DNA of 64,000 bases from assembly GCA_951406725.2 (NCBI GenBank), contig OX597825.1, forward strand, positions 2,046,001 to 2,110,000. The letters are read 5' to 3'. How positions within the stretch are numbered: position 1 is the first letter of the stretch; the number at the start of each line of letters is the position of its first letter. This DNA is from Octopus vulgaris. Its lineage: Eukaryota. The position numbers and the translations under genes were made by a program. Below are positions 3,255-63,138 of this stretch, piece after piece. The notes under the pieces are model-generated. The model had not been told where the DNA came from. It made no database searches and saw nothing but the letters and a program-made list of their open reading frames with translations.

Positions 3255-3367
3255 AATATTACCCTTCAGTAGAAAAGTCTTAGTGAAAGGGACGGACAGT
3301 AGAATAGAACCAGAGAACATCTCGTTGGAAAGCCATCTACCTAACCACACTGCCATGCCTACGCCAT
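3255..3367 (-). mobile_element. SINE family B, decayed
   Basis: Minus strand ggcgtaggcatggcagtgtggttagg resembles the head of the 48697 copy. Confidence 0.55.
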
Positions 3368-3639
3368 TCAAGTACACAACATATACAGTACACATATCCT
3401 ATATCACTAGCAGCTACGTAGATGATAGTGTGCGTGTTTAGTTTGATTGAGGATACAGCAAATTTTCATTAAGAGTTTTGTAATAATGTTTTTTTTCTTC
3501 CTTTGTAATAAGGTACATGAAATGTCAAGTGTAGATTTATTTACACGTGCTGTAACAACTTGCTCTGCAACAGGCAAATACAAGTACTCTCTCGTACTTT
3601 TTACCGCACAGGCATACACAATGACATTCACTCACTTGT

Positions 3640-3654
3640 GTTTGTATATATGTA

Positions 3655-3701
<47 letters not shown>

Positions 3702-3955
3702 ATATATATACATATTGGTAAAAACGGTAAGATAACAAAAGAAAGAGACATACTTACAAATATATATGTATACATACACATATATATATATGTATGTATA
3801 CACTCATACTTACACTTACAGACATACACACACATATGTATACATATACATAAACAGTACAAGATATAGTAATATACGTATGCATATATATATGTGTGTG
3901 TGTACATATATATCTATATCTATACATCTAACTATATCTATATGTATACGTATAA

Positions 3956-4020
<65 letters not shown>

Positions 4021-4270
4021 TGTATGTATATGTATATATGTACATGTATATATATGTTTATATATATAGACATATATATATATATATATGTACAAGTATA
4101 TATATATATATATATATATATAAACATATTTATACATGTATGTATATATACAGACACACACACACAAAGCCATGCACGCATATACAATTGACTGCATATA
4201 TATGCATGAGTGTGTGTGTATGTGTGTGCGTGCGTGCGTGTGCGTGTGTGTGTTTGTGTGTGTGTGTGTT
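3640..4270. repeat. Compound (TA)n/(CA)n/(TG)n microsatellite region
   Basis: Directly visible. Confidence 0.95.
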
Positions 4271-4886
4271 ATAAACATACAATCAATTTGTACGTTCTGT
4301 CGTTTGAACCCAGCTCATTATAACCAACAACACGTTAGTATCGACTCCGCCAGCTTTTTAATTAAGGTAAATCTGCTTAGTCGCTTACATCGAGTTTAAT
4401 GTTACAGCTATTTCCTCATTACACGCACCGTTGCCTTTGATCAAAGTACAAAGAACATACAACTTCTTGAGCGCTTCAACACGAACCTAACCGCATCTAC
4501 TTGGTCGTCACTACGATTTTAATCATCACATATTCAGCACAATCTCACATCAGTATTCTCAATGTTTATCCTTCCTTCGTATCTAAAGCCAGGGGTCATT
4601 CGCTTTCAAGCAATTTTTCTGAATTGTTGCTGTTACTACTATTGTTGTTTTTTTATCATTATGTATCTTTTAAGACGAGTGTCTTCATCTAGCAGACATA
4701 TGTTCAAAGATGCTCTAGCAATGACCACCCAGTCGGTTTCTCTTACCATATGTTAATCTGGGCCTCATTATCCTACGAGTTTTTTTGTTGTGAGGTCATG
4801 ATTTCAGGCTTTTTGTACATCACTTAAATCAGTTGGGCAAACAACATACAGGTACACTAATTAGCTTCGTTAATTGTCAAGGTAAA

Positions 4887-4978
4887 TACATACATACATA
4901 CATACATACATACATACATACATACATACATACATACATACATACATACATACATGTATGTATACATACATAGATACA
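4887..4978. repeat. (ATAC)n microsatellite
   Basis: Directly visible. Confidence 0.95.
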
Positions 4979-5168
4979 CATCAGACTTTTTGGAATAGTG
5001 AATTGCAAAGCACATATAAACCATTCTATTTTTTCTGACCCAAAAGGCATTTTCATCCCAATATTTAAATGTTATTATTTATAGCTTTGTCTGTGCTTCG
5101 AGATCCACTGTATAAGAAGGGATTATTGTATTCTCTGGAATGTTTATAAAATTCTTATGGCATCAACG

Positions 5169-5200
<32 letters not shown>

Positions 5201-5221
5201 ACTCCCACTCACACATACTCA

Positions 5222-5432
5222 CAGAGCCATAAAAGTTCCTGGCGTTCAAAGTATCGTGGAAGGCCTGATTGGTGGCCCTACCTCCATGTTATTTTACAGG
5301 GTTTAGAATACCCGAAGATTCGCTGCAATACATGGGTGAATCTAAGATGGGAATATATTGAATATAATGAAAATTAACTGATCCTCCTGTATTTTCTCTT
5401 ATCCAAAGCCAGAAACTTTTCACCCCACCCCG
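5222..5432. mobile_element. Mariner-derived MITE (~210 bp)
   Basis: Imperfect TIRs aaaagttcctggc / gccagaaacttttcaccccaccccg followed by TA. The internal aattaactgatcctcctgtattttct is shared with 39410-39625. Confidence 0.7.
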
Positions 5433-5438
5433 TATATG

Positions 5439-5526
5439 TCCGTCCGTCCGTCCGTCCGTCCGTCCGTCCGTCCATCCGTCCATCCATCCATCCATCCATC
5501 CATCCATCCATCCATCCATCCATCCG
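5439..5526. repeat. (TCCG)n/(TCCA)n microsatellite
   Basis: Directly visible. Confidence 0.95.
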
Positions 5527-5705
5527 TGCATCTAATTTTCACATACTATACCTCGTAAATCTGTGAATGTAAAACCATCCAGATTTCTAAGTACCTTATT
5601 TCTTCTAATATATTATACCTGCAAATCACCTCCAAACCTTCTAATATATATATGTACATTTATATATATTATATATGTATATATATGCATATGTATATGT
5701 ACATA

Positions 5706-5736
<31 letters not shown>

Positions 5737-5744
5737 TCCTCTCT

Positions 5745-6215
5745 CTGGCCGCTTTCTTTCTACCCGCTGCTTTCAACAAGTCAACATCGACTTTCTCCTG
5801 TCTTCCGCAAGCCGATCTTCAGAATGCGTTCCAACGAATTTTTCCACCGTCTAGGCTTTAAAAAAAAAGCCCTTATTGTTGGTTTCCTTGTCCTGTTTTT
5901 ATTCTTTATGTGTACTGTTTTTTCTTCGTCTGTATTGCTTTTACATCCTGTTCTTGTCACTTTTTTTTTACCCCTCTGCAAAATAATTTTATTTAATTCC
6001 TTTTGCAGGAAGGACTGCTTAGGCCGGATTGTGTTCTGCCCTTACCTTCGAAACACGCATTGAGTCGAAACAGGGGCAGCTGATGAAAGGGAATATTCCT
6101 TGTATTGTTTGTCTTGTACTCTGTTTTGTCGTTGTTAAAAAAAGTCCGTTTCCTTGTTTGATTTTATGTTTTCGTTTCTCGTTGTGTTCTACGTTTATTT
6201 GTGGTGTCCTGTACT
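5745..6215 (+). mobile_element. Probable Penelope-like non-coding repeat with a hammerhead-like structure
   Basis: Sits between microsatellites. Contains CTGCCC...GGGCAG-CTGATGA followed by the hairpin AAGGGAATATTCCTT (6034-6102). The core is incomplete. Confidence 0.4.
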
Positions 6216-6386
6216 CATATATATATATAGATGTAGGTATTTACATATATGTATGTATGAATATGTTTTATTTATTAAATTATTATATATATATGTGTGT
6301 GTGTGTATATGTATACATATATATATGCATATATATATACATATGTATATATATATATATATGCATATATTTATATATATACACGC

Positions 6387-6418
<32 letters not shown>

Positions 6419-6469
6419 TTATGTATATATATATATGTGTATATATATACATGTACATATCTATATATG

Positions 6470-6655
6470 TATCATGATATATCACTAACCACTACACATT
6501 CTTTATTTTCTCTCTTTGTTTCCTTCTGTGTTCCTTTCTGTGGAAGAGCGTAGGCTCGAAACTTTAAAACTTTTCCTCTTCCAGAGCGTTATACTAATAC
6601 ATATATTTGTTGTCTACAACACCTGTCTTCGTCGTTTGTTCTTTTGTGAATTCTT

Positions 6656-6660
<5 letters not shown>
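6470..6660 (+). mobile_element. Short repeat with a variant hammerhead motif, copy 1
   Basis: TTT-CTGTGGA-A-GAGC-gtag-GCTC-GAAAC-TTT-AAA at 6535-6568. Homologous to the inverted copy at 7745-7930. (TA)n flanks. Confidence 0.65.
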
Positions 6661-6720
<60 letters not shown>

Positions 6721-6789
6721 GTTTTTTTAAATACAAATAAATGAAAGAATGGAGTTGAACGACGAATTAACAAATTTCCTTTATTTTAT

Positions 6790-6870
6790 TTTGGACATAT
6801 GTTTCGAAGGCTGCATATTCCTAATTTCGAAGGAATAAGGGGTGTATTATGCCGCCTTCTCATCAGGAAA
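6790..6870 (-). ncRNA. Hammerhead ribozyme type I, inverted copy
   Basis: TTTC-CTGATGA-GAAGGC...GCCTTC-GAAAC-ATAT-GTC-CAAA. The first stem I pair is mismatched. Confidence 0.75.
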
Positions 6871-7122
6871 AGTAAGGAACTTATGTCAGCATGAAGATGC
6901 ACAAAAACTTTTAGATGACTGCCCACAAAAAAACACACAAAATTCCACACGATAGCACGTGATCTCTGCCCTAGGCAGGTAGCTTCAACCGTGTTTTTCT
7001 GACGTGAATTTGCTACCCAGGTATCGGTTAACCGAATTATTCATAATAAGATAATTCATTCAACTACTCAATTATTCATATACAGTCTCCTTGAGATCCT
7101 GCTACCTTAACCGATACCGCAA

Positions 7123-7280
7123 ATGGAGTTGTTCGACACTAACGCATCCCATAAGGACATACCTATATCACCAAAAGAAACCTTCCTTAAGGAAATTGTT
7201 AACAAAACAAATGCATTTATCAACCGCATTAGATGGCTCGCCTTCTTCCACGATGATGAGGACATAAAACGAAAGAAACA
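7123..7280 (+). pseudogene. Truncated N-terminus of a Penelope-like element ORF
   Basis: SHKDIPISPKETFLKEIVNKTNAFINRIRWLAFF resembles the SxKNIPIP...FIxRMRWKAFF start of PLE RT/GIY-YIG proteins (recognised from memory). No RT domain follows. Confidence 0.7.
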
Positions 7281-7359
7281 CTCATTATCGCTATGGGCTC
7301 CGTATGGGCAGTCATCTAAAAGTTTTTGTGCATCTTGATGCTGACATAAGTTCCTTACT

Positions 7360-7440
7360 TTTCCTGATGAGGAGGCGGCATAATGCACCCCTTATTCCTT
7401 CGAAATTAGGAATATGCAGCCTTCGAAACATATGTCGAAA
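7360..7440 (+). ncRNA. Hammerhead ribozyme type I with extended stem II, canonical core
   Basis: Stem I TTTC(7360-63)/GAAA(7437-40); CTGATGA 7364-70; stem II GGAGGC/GCCTTC extended by GCATA/TATGC; GAAAC-ATAT-GTC with palindromic stem III. Predicted cleavage after 7436. Confidence 0.85.
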
Positions 7441-7661
7441 TTAAATAAAGGTATTTTGTTAATTCGTCGTTCAACTCCATTCTTTCATTTATTTGTATTT
7501 AAAAAAAACACACAAATTTCCACACGATAGCACGTGATCTCTGCCTTAGGCATGTAGCTTCAACCGTGTTTTTCTGACGTGAATTTGCTACCCAGGTATC
7601 GGTTAACCGAATTATCCATAATAAGATAATTCATTCAACTACTCAATTATATATATATATA

Positions 7662-7733
<72 letters not shown>

Positions 7734-7744
7734 CATATATACAG

Positions 7745-7927
7745 TTGGAAATCCCCCCCAAAAAAACAAAAGACGAAGTGAGATGTGTATACAACAAACA
7801 GATGTATTAGCGTAACGCTCGGGAATTGAGAAAGTCTTTTACGTTTCGAGCCTACGCTCTTCAAAAGGGAACACGGGAGAATAAACAGAGAGAGAGAATA
7901 AAAATGTTTAGTGGCTAGCGGTCAATC

Positions 7928-7930
<3 letters not shown>
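7745..7930 (-). mobile_element. Short repeat with a variant hammerhead motif, copy 2
   Basis: Minus strand TTTTGA-A-GAGC-gtag-GCTC-GAAAC-GTA-AAAG at ~7836-7868. Homologous to 6470-6660. Confidence 0.65.
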
Positions 7931-7967
<37 letters not shown>

Positions 7968-11233: not shown

Positions 11234-12070
<837 letters not shown>

Positions 12071-12191
12071 ACATATATATATATAGATATATATATACAT
12101 ATATATATAGATATATATATACATATATATATAGATATATACATACACATATATGCATATATAGATATATACATGCATATATATCTATACA

Positions 12192-15580: not shown

Positions 15581-15973
15581 CTTCATGAGCAAATATAAAG
15601 TTGTAGAGTCAAAGAGAAATCCTGGAGGCAATGGTTTTATTTCGTTAGAAACAGCAATAAAATACACCAACCCAACACACACACGACCCAACTTGCGTAA
15701 ATATTCCCTTCGAATTATTAACTGCTTTGTCCGTATATTGTCCCATTGATTTGTATAAGGATCGCTCCCCAGGCAACTTTCTGCATGAATTTCGGTAGTT
15801 ACGGTTTTGAGCGTAAGACTCTGTGAGTTGCGTGTATGCTTACCTCGAAGCGGGTTGTGCCAGGAACTTATTACTAAAGCTCGAAGGGCTAATCGTGACG
15901 CTATGAGAATTAACGACTTTATGATATATCTGGTTTCTTGGGAAATGATAAGTACTTTAGCCAGAGGAGGCAC
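15581..15973 (-). CDS. Candidate exon 2: VPPLAKVLIISQETRYIIK...TTLYLLMK (131 codons)
   Basis: Open non-repetitive frame ending AAG|GTACGT. The acceptor ttgcaag| is weak. An optional in-frame 63-nt GTAAGC...CAG intron lies at 15843-15781. Confidence 0.35.
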
Positions 15974-16045
15974 CTTGCAATATTAGGGGGGAAATCTTGA
16001 TAGAGTAAAATCTTAAATCGGATTATCCTTTGCATTCTAACTCAC

Positions 16046-16078
16046 TTCATGTTTCAAGCGGGTGAGTGTCATCCACAT
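16046..16078 (-). CDS. Candidate first coding exon MWMTLTRLKHE
   Basis: ATG...GAA|GTGAGT phase-0 donor, then a 72-nt intron with ctaat near its 3' end. Confidence 0.25.
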
Positions 16079-16624
16079 ACTTCAATTTATCAGTAAAGCT
16101 ACACTTCGCAACTGCTCGTTATTTTGGATAGTGGCCCCGTTGAAGACTATGTTTGTCTACAGTTAGATTAGAGATTCTTCTGCTGAAAGAGGGGTTAGTG
16201 GCTGACGTTTCTATGGATATAAGTAGTAGACTTTTTTTATTAGGATAGTTAGTACCTGCTTGTCTAGGTAGTAGACATGTGTTAAGTAGATAGTAGCAGT
16301 TATTGTTCAGCTGAATTTTTGTTAACTGTTTATAAGATCCAGCATGAACGAATCTCCATCCTGGTCATTCATATTGTTTGGGACTGTCCGGAAATCATAT
16401 AAAACGACGAACAGTGGAGACTTGAACTCTCGATAGACACAGTCGAGAAGTGGGACACTTTCATTTTATTTTACACCGCGCACATTCTCGTGAAGCAGTG
16501 GGTGATCTCTTAGTGTCGATAATTCTGATATCGAGGCCACTAATTCTGAAAACGTATCAACCGAAATCACGGACTTTTAGGAGAATGGACTTCGATGTCA
16601 AAGAGTACAACTCCAAAATATTAT

Positions 16625-52477: not shown

Positions 52478-55134
52478 TTAGTTCACAAGTCATCTAAAAC
52501 CAAATCTATAAATTCCGCAAGAACTTTCTTGACAATTGACAACCTAATACAGTGTAGAGATTGAGGAGGAAACATCGGGGTCATATTAGACAATTCTGGT
52601 CAGCTTGGATACAAGATGATACTACGGAATAGTGCCAGAATTTTCAACCTTTCCACACCTTCTTCGGATATATCGTATGTTTCCGTCTCAGGATTATTTC
52701 GATTTACCTTCAGATGAGTAACCAGGACTGATTCGCGTCGTTAGTTTATCATTGATATAGGTTTTCACATTAGTTGAGCACGAATATGTAATTTTTATCG
52801 TGTTCCTGTTAAATACGTTCACCTTTCTGATGTGCGTTATTCTGAATATACAGCTCAAATTATGTGTAGTTAATTTGTATGATTTCTTTTGAAGAGTTCA
52901 TACGATATTCAGCAGGTTCTATTTCTCCAACTTCTGAAAATAGCGAAATTATTTTAGAAATCTGAGAAATTCTATTTTTCAATTAATTAGCAAGTAGAAA
53001 TTAAAAGTATAGAATTCACCCTGCAATGTTTACATAAATGAATATTACAGATCTATTTCTTTCACCCATGTCAAACATGTCAGTCTAGTAATAGAGTCTT
53101 TGCGTGAGTAGCTTGATCAACTAAAATCCCCAAATTTATCTGACAAACTATACATTCCATTCTCTTACAAAGGACACAATGAAAAATACCGTCCAAGGAA
53201 TAAAGCAGAAAAAAAAACGATAATTTTATCGTGAATGCCTTGAATTCTATGTCTTCTTGATCAGAGCTGACTTGAGTTTAAACATTAATCAAGCAACAAT
53301 CACAAGAAGAAGAAATGAAAAACAGATAATCTCAGGACTGAAATATATCTTTCTGTCTATTTTACCTTTTTTTTATTTTTAAATGTTGTATCCTTTTGTC
53401 CTCGTGAGTGGCAGTCACAACGAGGCTGGTTTTATTTCCATTCCATCGTCTTCATAACAATGATGCTACAGATTTGTTGATATCATATCTCGCATAAATA
53501 GGTCCGAGGGATTAACTTCATTTTCTAATTTTGACATCCATTACAATGATGCGTGCTTATCTACTCCACTTGTCATGCATTTTATACATTGGTCAGGAGT
53601 CAGTTTATCAATCTACTGTCTTCCAAGTAAGATCCTAATTACCCTTTTTTTTTTGTAAAATCAACGTTTAGGGTACCGTGCACACAACAAATAACTTTGA
53701 TTGTAAAATGTTTCCATGGTACATTCCCAGTTATTTCAAACTTACCTGACACATGTAGTTAATAGTTTTTTTCACGCACCAACATTGTCAGTGACATTGT
53801 TTTAAGTAACAACACGCAGTCTATGATTGAGGAGTGAAAAACCACATCATAAGCATTTCGTTATCAACCAAGATTTTTTCCAAGTTTGTATGGCTTCTCA
53901 TTGAATCGTTCAGTATCATCGTGTGTACAGAAATTGATTTTTAGGTCCATCACTCTATCTTCTACATCTTTCCCGCCTCTGCTTCCAGATATTATAGTCC
54001 ACCGTGATACCGGTCAAAATATTTACATCAGAAAAGAGCATACTAGGCGCAACATGGTTAACATTATTTTTGTTTATGGCGAGTCTGTTAACACCGAAAA
54101 TTCGTCCGTGTATGAATCATGTAGGTCACTCCTCACTACTTAATATACAATTCCAAAGATAATCTCTCTTGTAAGGATTTCAATTCCTGTAACTAATACC
54201 ACTGAATGCCATCAGGGTTTTGAGCGCTCCAATTATTCATTTTACTACACTGCATATTTACCATCACTCTTGCACACACATACTTCCTTGCTTGTTGATT
54301 TATTGTTATCGTCTTGTTCTAAAAGAGTTCTTGCTTTCCCACTCCACTTGTGATGTCTTACAAGTCTCATTCATTTTCCACACTTTGGCTGTCTTTATCA
54401 AACAGTTGATTTCAGTTACATTGTCTTAGATAATTCCATTGCTTTTACGGTTACCTTTTCTAGTTTATCACTATTAATCCTTTCAGTGAACTGAACAGTT
54501 TTCCTCGTCACGTTTTGAATTCTTCGCAAAATCTATCGCAACCATTCAAAGGATATGTTTCTTCTCTCTTCCACCACCATCTAAAATCAACCTAATTCTC
54601 CTTTACCTGAAAACAACCACTTCTTCATTCGCTTCCACTTCACTTCTCCACTCTGTGTTTCTACTTACGATGTTTTGCTGATTAAATGACAAAGGCTCAC
54701 GTCAGTAATACACCAAGTTACCATCGTTTTGTCAGAAAGTCTTCGCTCGAACATAGCTTTTATCTTTTATGGTTTACTCGTCATGCTGGGGCACCGCCTT
54801 GAAGAATATTTAGTCGAATGTATCAGTACTTATTTGTTTTAAATTTCGCTAAATTACAGGGACGTAAGCGAATGGTCCACTCTAGGTATGCGCCTGTAGA
54901 TTGGTGATTAAAGGGGTCGTATATTTGGTGGCCGGTGTAATCTTAGGACAGGTCTAGTTGAAGTTTATCCTGTATCAGTAAGACTGCATCATTCATGTTA
55001 TCACATACTTTGTATGCTAAGTATCTATTTATCGCATTTCACTTTCTTCCGTTCCTTTATGTAAACACCGCACAAATTGTTGTCCGTCCTTGTGATGTAC
55101 CCATCATCCATAGCCCCGTGTCTAATAAAATGAA

Positions 55135-62517: not shown

Positions 62518-62521
<4 letters not shown>

Positions 62522-63138
62522 TGACGCATATTTGCCATTTGAATATGGCTAACCCCTAAGGGTGGATGCTACTGTAGTTTGTAGCCCCAGGAAGATATCT
62601 CCTCCAGCTGGCTATAGACACACTATCTGTGCCCTATCAGTATTTGTGAAGGGAAGTCATCCTTCCCGTCTGGGGCTACAAACTACAGTAGCATCCACCC
62701 TTAAGGGTTAGCCATATTCAAATGGCAAATATGCGTCACGTTGTGTTACCGCTGCTGTTTATAACTCACTCTGAGATTTATCATTGTTTGATTTCACTTT
62801 TTCAATATCAGTGTCAATCGACACTGGAAAAAGTATATGTATTTGTGAGGGAAACTGAATTCTCGTCGACAACTATGATTATCACACGCTGATGATAGGT
62901 AAATACCTTGAAACTCGAGTCCGTGTGTATCATAAGTTGAAGACGGGAAGGATGACTTCCCTTCACAAATACTGATAGGCCACAGATAGTGTGTCTATAG
63001 CCAGCTGGAGGAGATATCTTCCTGGGGCTACAAACTACGGTGGCATCCACCCTTAGGGGTTAGCCATATTCAAATAGCAAATATGCGTCACGATGTGTTA
63101 CCGCTACTGTTTATAACTCGCTCTGAGATTTATCATTA
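62518..63138 (+). mobile_element. Retrozyme-like HHR element: inverted segment plus ~1.33 units of a 352-bp repeat, in (TA)n
   Basis: 62518-62671 is the reverse complement of 62941-63094. 62671-62786 repeats at 63023-63138. One HHR, no credible ORF. Confidence 0.9.
62870..62939 (+). ncRNA. Hammerhead ribozyme type I with long stem I
   Basis: CACACG(62883-88)-CTGATGA-T-AGGT-aaat-ACCT-T-GAAAC-TCGA-GTC-CGTGTG(62922-27). Stem I extends by TATGAT/ATCATA and CAAC/GTTG. Predicted cleavage after 62921. Confidence 0.9.

Follow-up and report, generated by a model that had tools for sequence, protein, structure and literature searches.

Structure of the Locus

The window analysed here, a 64,000-nt (64-kb) stretch of Octopus vulgaris DNA, carries at 6722-7647, with a (TA)n array on either side, a genuine copy of a Hydra-type PLE family that has undergone internal deletion; its parts (pLTR, pseudo-LTR) are as follows.

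6658-6720, no strand: left (TA)n target array
6722-6925, minus strand: inverted 5' piece of the upstream pLTR, reverse complement of 7305-7507
6927-7072, plus strand: forward remainder of the upstream pLTR, repeat of 7502-7647
7073-7122, plus strand: rest of the 5' UTR, 50 nt, single copy
7123-7271, plus strand: ORF remnant of a Hydra-type PLE, codons 1-49, the frame continuing past the junction to a stop at 7336-7338
7270-7272, plus strand: internal deletion junction, with probably about 2 kb missing
7272-7647, plus strand: 3' UTR and downstream pLTR, far deeper than the ORF piece in public contigs
7360-7440, plus strand: type I hammerhead motif, with predicted cleavage after the GUC ending at 7436
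7648-7729, no strand: right (TA)n target array

The inverted piece is 96% identical to 7305-7507 (8 differences in 204 columns) and includes an antisense copy of the hammerhead with a 1-nt insertion at its cleavage site. The forward remainder differs from 7502-7647 at 4 of 146 positions (97% identity), and the period is 575 bp, compared with the 574 bp given for the unit in a preliminary description of this DNA. The inverted piece stops where the forward part starts, with an overlap of 6 nt, which we take to resemble the twin priming of L1. Since (TA)n loose ends lie behind 7082 in 5, 24 and 17 contigs of three runs, the 3' terminus of the parent family is placed near 7072, the position that corresponds to it in this copy.

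The duplicated part of the element is the pLTR only (7305-7647), given that each of the other parts (remaining 5' UTR, ORF remnant, junction, sense hammerhead) is found once, and no second ORF piece was found in the 64-kb window. The forward sequence amounts to 1.25 units with one sense hammerhead. The pLTRs of this (TA)n insertion are found in both direct and inverted orientation, and an inverted pLTR followed by pLTR-ORF-pLTR is described in the available text of two papers (PMC3846280, PMC8557442) as the usual arrangement of full-length PLE insertions. The preliminary description had reported an inverted segment plus more than one unit in (TA)n, a layout that is present here, although the extra part covers the pLTR and never the ORF piece; because it is identical to that of a standard full-length PLE insertion, this layout does not by itself make the locus an intermediate. 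Just outside the (TA)n arrays of the element, at 6441-6646 and 7759-7963, lie two copies of another repeat, in opposite orientation and 79% identical.

The history of the copy may be read from its variable sites. At 14 of the 17 such sites for which there are two copies, both pLTRs carry the same window letter; at the other three, the second copy agrees with 98.6-99.97% of the X1 contig depth, and each discordant letter is private to one copy, which points to one template followed by private changes. Three further letters, at 7139, 7151 and 7168 in the ORF remnant, are likewise private (all of the aligned depth in four of four runs has another letter) and non-synonymous, two of them hitting consensus residues. 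Judged from these letters, the locus is a single insertion which has decayed since, with about 2% private changes.

Coding Remnant and Family Identity

The ATG at 7123 opens a frame of 71 codons, the first 52 residues of which gave, in a set of 1.84 billion proteins, 21 matches at E<=0.001, 20 of them aligning as a single N-terminal family and one being a Calx-beta repeat protein. Match P0019 extends into the RT motifs and led to 233 proteins, and a full-length profile built from the best 120 of these relatives (667-946 aa) aligns with the peptide over model positions 1-53 of 703 (E 1.9e-12), with no other part of the element scoring. With the 120 proteins as queries, tblastn gave 91 HSPs (best E 1.8e-8), and two of the seven profile proteins checked match Pfam RVT_1, one of them above the cut-off. 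No match to the peptide was returned by word-indexed protein searches or by Pfam, and no usable one by the ESM Atlas. The roughly 50 codons of a PLE N-terminus noted in the preliminary description thus correspond to 49 codons of Hydra type, and its claim that RT and endonuclease have been lost through an internal deletion agrees with a profile match limited to the first 53 positions.

R37 and W38, invariant in alignment A1, are both present in the remnant, and the third residue of the RWK motif is L, as in the closest match, P0002. The consensus of the relatives has RWK, DKT, CxCX5C, CxxC and CxH together with a GIY-YIG-type motif; the first five mark the Hydra clade, a clade without a CCHH motif, for which (TA)n is given as the preferred target in the available text of PMC8557442. 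This clade of C-terminal EN+ PLEs, which includes Hydra-1_Obim, also shares with the element the N-terminal RW motif region, a type I hammerhead downstream of the ORF, the (TA)n target and the partial-tandem plus inverted layout, as far as these are described by Craig et al. 2021 (PMC8557442). The clade motifs are carried by the homologous full-length proteins, whereas this copy has no RT, linker or endonuclease (RT and GIY-YIG endonuclease in one ORF being absent) and reads RWL in place of RWK, and its stem II loop is much longer than in the Hydra hammerhead motifs listed in that paper. By these sequence traits the element is a derivative of a Hydra-clade PLE, and its family is apparently an undescribed one of Hydra type, as no described family was matched; it is distinct from the described cephalopod family Hydra-1_Obim, given that 15 of 42 residues are identical, counted by eye, and that the hammerhead differs.

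A remnant of the C-terminus was also considered, as the ATG frame reads C-stop-H at 7339-7347, resembling the CxH end of the clade. This candidate was rejected, given that tail profiles of 22, 30 and 45 columns match nothing in the element, and that the hammerhead of the relatives sits 61-206 nt past the stop (three of three).

The N-terminal profile found no relatives in viral contigs and 19 loci in metagenomes, most of them full-length, in tandem or truncated where the contig stops, and in none of the 19 is the ORF start joined to the 3' end; locus L019 gave no profile match. Two of the Hydra-type elements recovered have features of their own, a 1.3-kb spacer between the stop and the next ATG (L005:2215-3500) and a tandem repeat with a period of about 123 bp inside the linker-coding region (L004:1932-2669). 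The window itself contains two decayed fragments of Hydra-type ORFs on the minus strand, at 52739-52819 (model positions 522-548, E 1.5e-5) and at 15780-16190 (model positions 432-566, E 0.0045).

The Hammerhead Motif

The GUC hammerhead that the preliminary description had placed at 7360-7440 in the unit was found by descriptor, with the core CUGAUGA at 7364-7370, GAAA at 7425-7428 and GUC at 7434-7436. Stem I has 4 bp, stem II has 6 bp and a long branched loop, and stem III has 2 bp and a palindromic 4-nt loop. The descriptor scan returned four motifs in the window, compared with two in 50 shuffles combined, and the Rfam search gave no hammerhead match either at gathering score or at E<=10. 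The lowest-energy fold of the monomer is not a hammerhead (-23.3 kcal/mol, compared with -16.7 kcal/mol when the hammerhead is forced, a gap of 6.6), and the active form was not obtained in the dimer fold of two hammerhead copies. By descriptor, then, the motif is of type I, with predicted cleavage. Animal type I motifs typically have a short helix III with a palindromic loop and are thought to be active as dimers, according to the available text of PMC4209133. The second copy is antisense and damaged, and the locus cannot itself excise a unit-length RNA, because it has only one sense hammerhead. Separately, the start-codon region (7122-7137) is complementary at 14 of 16 positions to 7466-7481, just 3' of the hammerhead cut site.

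The Deletion Junction and the Parent Family in Public Contigs

Contigs of 4 of 24 listed runs were aligned to one rotation of the unit (7000-7574). Contigs on the ORF side diverge from the window sequence at 7270 (X9 record 25, with 335 further letters) and at 7271 (X4 record 9, with 27 differences in 219), and contigs on the 3' side have other letters before 7272 in 12, 15 and 3 cases in three runs. As the contigs of both sides diverge at 7270-7272, the junction which the preliminary description had rightly recognized is placed there and not near 7280. From the junction to the next ATG there are 426 nt, compared with 294-424 nt from stop to ATG in the relatives (five of five with both ends), and the junction would therefore lie near the stop codon of the parent. 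Given this, the deletion would span from codon 50 to about the stop, some 2 kb by reference to relatives of 700-720 aa, and would have removed the RT, the linker and the GIY-YIG endonuclease.

A multi-copy parent family, about 86-88% identical, is visible in the public contigs, with the parent element recovered in pieces and never whole. It is a likely helper, as the preliminary description had suggested, although for this element only and not for a second element of the window, at 62518. Nine of 19 differences in the ORF piece are synonymous, against 21% expected (p 0.01; the 19 are drawn from the 40 of 119 rows listed, three rows in the 5' UTR being left out), an excess that fits a coding family under selection. 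In four of four runs the pLTR far exceeds the ORF piece in summed contig depth, which serves as a contrast only and gives no copy number; in X1, for example, the depth is 91,918-978,973 over 7300-7574 and 3,363-7,490 over 7080-7259. This fits the usual surplus of 5'-truncated PLE copies. Among the listed runs none is on record as RNA, X9 being RNA by guess.

Among 32 listed contig pieces, of 6530, none bridges the junction, and those reaching it (the same X9 record 25 and X4 record 9) run into other sequence. The X1 depth at 7230 belongs mostly to contigs outside these 32 pieces, and the bin depths of X9 imply one contig beyond the listed pieces, with a depth of about 7 and a start near 7239, which may bridge the junction or may follow the parent. 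Given that no listed public contig spans the junction and that no run contains more than 0.42 of the sampled words, the junction might be an assembly or library chimera, in which two copies of a high-copy repeat were joined. On the other hand, the pieces are collinear in the order of a single element and share a template haplotype, and the words are missing because contigs drop rare variants of high-copy repeats, so a chimera appears very improbable. Splicing was rejected as a cause of the deletion, since the letters of other copies before 7272 end in a T run and not in AG, the donor side being unseen.

The same contigs provide a few observations on the family. Four independent opposite-strand joints, in two runs, fall at 7284-7285, so the family often has inverted 5' ends; this point, which falls within the right arm of the hairpin described below, may represent a transcription start or an RT stall site that would leave solo pLTRs some 364 nt long. 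Tandems joined pLTR to pLTR may also exist in the parent family, as suggested by a single weak joint (7082 to 7302, side 22).

RNA Folding and the Origin of the Deletion

Two predicted structures of the RNA bear on how the deletion may have arisen.

7229-7319, plus strand: predicted junction-spanning hairpin, with arms 7251-7260/7281-7290 and 7229-7243/7306-7319
7020-7118, plus strand: predicted perfect 12-bp stem, with arms 7020-7031/7107-7118

The junction falls in the 20-nt apical loop of the first (z -3.8), the arms of which derive from opposite sides of the deletion, with the breakpoints 11 and 9 nt inside the closing stem. Points centred on the junction rank first and second of 210 tested for pairing, and the observed pairing is matched by 1, 7, 0, 0 and 0 of 500 shuffles at 30, 45, 60, 100 and 148 nt, respectively. 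Random ORF-to-3' fusions made in 10 natural relatives pair as well in 61, 9 and 9 of 4000 cases at 30, 45 and 60 nt, GC-matched random fusions in 1 of 1244 (45 nt) and point pairs inside the element in 6 of 1456, all of these statistics being inflated, because the hairpin was noticed post hoc, after folding. When not anchored at the junction, the pairing between the ORF start and the spacer is ordinary (z 1.6), and a conserved pairing of this kind is no clear shared trait in 13 relatives (z -1.9 to 2.3). As a model, the hairpin leans toward a template jump at the RNA level over plain decay.

In the second structure, which closes 4 nt upstream of the ATG, the position of the 3' terminus falls in a loop rich in A and C; its z is -4.8, for a window picked after the fact, and a stem of at least 12 bp is found in 2 of 300 shuffled units. 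In PAc, the Poseidon PLE of Anolis, reverse transcription starts inside the RNA, in an AC-rich stem-loop, and the sequence downstream of this start is required, according to the available text of Frangieh et al. 2024 (PMC11167929), and the 7020/7118 stem-loop is, by analogy, a candidate start site of reverse transcription. In both elements the ends map to a predicted stem-loop, rich in A and C, close to where the ORF starts, and the target is AT-rich; PAc belongs to another clade and starts at +111 to +118 of the ORF in that account, whereas the ends of the present family, known from sequence alone, lie about 50 nt before the ATG.

The favoured reading, with a probability of roughly 45%, is that the deletion resulted from a template jump across the looped-out 2 kb or so during the reverse transcription that made this insertion. 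The RT/endonuclease of the family would nick the (TA)n array, and reverse transcription would start internally, as in PAc, at the RNA position equivalent to 7647/7072, which the 7020/7118 stem holds in its loop, and copy the pLTR back to 7272, where the 3' UTR would be held beside ORF codons 36-46 by base pairing. The RT would then jump the looped-out segment, land at codon 50 and proceed through the 5' UTR into the upstream pLTR, and the other target strand would prime the inverted piece. As the deletion would occur at the RT jump, deletion and insertion would be a single event, and the copy would decay afterwards.

The sequence left by a template jump would not differ from that left by a later DNA deletion, however, and a full-length copy of standard layout may have lost the 2 kb by DNA deletion after its insertion, the hairpin being due to chance. 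The layout is indeed the standard one, the copy itself has decayed, and stems of ten bases often form between segments of this kind; many PLE copies have been disabled by internal deletions (PMC3846280), and a Chlamys-3 copy has a 2.84-kb internal deletion (PMC8557442), in the available parts of these papers. Set against this are the 0.2-1.5% of random fusions which pair as well as the junction does and the type of break, given that published deleted copies, such as those of Adineta vaga, are described as microhomology-mediated (PMC3846280, available text), whereas no microhomology is visible here, the letters of the parent behind 7271 being absent from the data, and the break coincides with a predicted hairpin tip. 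Post-insertion loss is accordingly held to be rather improbable.

Internally deleted PLE copies of this layout have already been published. Pen2, Pen5 and Pen6 of A. vaga (PMC3846280) and Chlamys-3_cRei (PMC8557442) likewise have an inverted pLTR and two direct pLTRs around an internally deleted ORF, as described in the text available, whereas here nearly the whole ORF has been lost. A search of the literature outside most subscription papers and Repbase found no published case of a PLE whose deletion junction coincides with an RNA hairpin, nor of a retrozyme that keeps part of an ORF. If the junction described here is unique, the locus would be a damaged copy that nonetheless reveals a high-copy family of Hydra type, apparently undescribed, and that gives a hint that deletions arising while PLEs are reverse transcribed are guided by RNA structure.

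The Deleted Unit as a Possible Mini-Element

The 575-nt deleted form may also be a non-autonomous family in its own right, copied in trans by the protein of the parent, perhaps via circular or multimeric RNA, in which the 5' UTR and the 49 codons would be kept as an RNA structure or recognition signal and not for the peptide. For example, the circular unit folds far better than its shuffles (z -5.8, 40 shuffles), whereas neither the pLTR by itself (z -1.1) nor the 5' UTR together with the ORF piece (z -0.5) does so, and the breakpoints lie, as stated, just inside the closing stem. The unit also retains the 3' arm of the stem around the putative RT start, an arm absent from a solo pLTR, so the deleted form may keep a recognition signal that the solo pLTR loses. 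The RNA of the anole PLE requires the first 172 nt of the ORF (PMC11167929), and pLTRs mobilise intervening sequence in trans (PMC3846280), according to the available text of these papers, and the X9 contig that would start near 7239 possibly bridges the junction.

Against this stand the single junction, the single sense hammerhead and the lack of a second ORF piece in the window, together with the 0 of 32 listed pieces bridging the junction. Folding of nearly the same quality is seen in the two further hammerhead units of the window (z -4.7 and -4.3), and good folding is therefore common to such repeats. A 28-base pattern of the pLTR had no match in three DNA collections (metagenome, viral and prokaryote), a weak test, as none of these holds animal genomes. 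A family of mobilised deleted units is thus doubtful. The fuller proposal, that the unit is a mobilised retrozyme-like mini-element which arose from a Hydra-clade PLE by a structure-guided jump, and so a traceable intermediate between PLEs and hammerhead circles, is considered unlikely. The preliminary description had seen here an intermediate formed by internal deletion; the deletion from a PLE is upheld, whereas the copying of the deleted unit as a unit is not, as only the pLTR is duplicated.

Animal non-LTR retrozymes (Cervera and de la Pena 2020, PMC7229834; Li, Clavereau and Pollet 2026, 10.64898/2026.07.22.740005) are, in the available text, similar in their short unit with a type I hammerhead, the presence of more than one unit, a well-folded predicted circle and the link to PLE pLTRs, and differ from this element, which has a coding remnant, 1.25 forward units and one sense hammerhead. 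The unit length of 575 exceeds the 170-400 nt of retrozymes and lies within the range of 51-972 bp of the 2026 preprint, in the part available. As the preprint (10.64898/2026.07.22.740005) defines an active retrozyme, in that same part, by two consecutive units with a complete hammerhead, the locus is not one. The available text also reports homology of retrozymes to the pLTRs at PLE termini and proposes their birth from the terminal repeat (10.64898/2026.07.22.740005), and retrozymes have been tied to PLEs through common ribozymes and co-occurrence (PMC7229834, PMC7761336, available text). Precedents are provided by non-autonomous Chlamys elements (PMC8557442) and by R2 SIDEs (PMC6765202), as far as the text at hand describes them; the latter, like the derivative that the preliminary description proposed, are ribozyme-bearing, non-autonomous and formed by ORF loss, and differ in their R2 origin, in their ribozyme, which is of HDV type, and in replicating in trans according to that description (PMC6765202).

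That animal non-LTR retrozymes derive from PLEs is argued from their co-occurrence and from the similarity to pLTRs, the mobilising enzyme being so far undemonstrated. If the unit were a mini-element, the jump would have removed everything outside a folded RNA domain, the ORF codons would have stayed by pairing with the pLTR and carrying the RT recognition signal, and the helper family would be identified, by an internal-deletion route that differs from the published solo-pLTR route. If the junction recurs, a parent-derivative pair would be at hand for testing cis-signals, circle formation and mobilisation in trans.

Other Hammerhead Repeats in the Window

The preliminary description had likened the locus to a second hammerhead-bearing element, which serves here for comparison.

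62518-63137, plus strand: comparison element, inverted at 62518-62671, with a 352-bp period

Its hammerhead core is at 62889, with predicted cleavage after 62921, and it gave no Hydra-ORF match, coding being checked by the Hydra profile and six-frame reading only. The likeness holds for the kind of layout, whereas the two elements have no DNA similarity; because no sequence is common to them, the 62518 element needs a parent of its own, and the view of the present locus as an intermediate toward it was abandoned. At 62520-62740 the inverted and forward parts of this element overlap by about 71 bp, forming a long palindrome, and long palindromes are described at PLE inversion junctions in the available text of PMC3846280.

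Nearer to the locus, a minus-strand hammerhead motif at 8081-8003 has a palindromic stem III identical to that of the 6722-7647 element. Finally, a third hammerhead-bearing repeat lies in (TA)n at 11409-12072, without a Hydra ORF match; it has a 56-bp terminal direct repeat, a 615-bp period, a core at 11789, an 11-bp tandem repeat in loop II and predicted cleavage after 11889, and its circular form folds with a z of -4.3.
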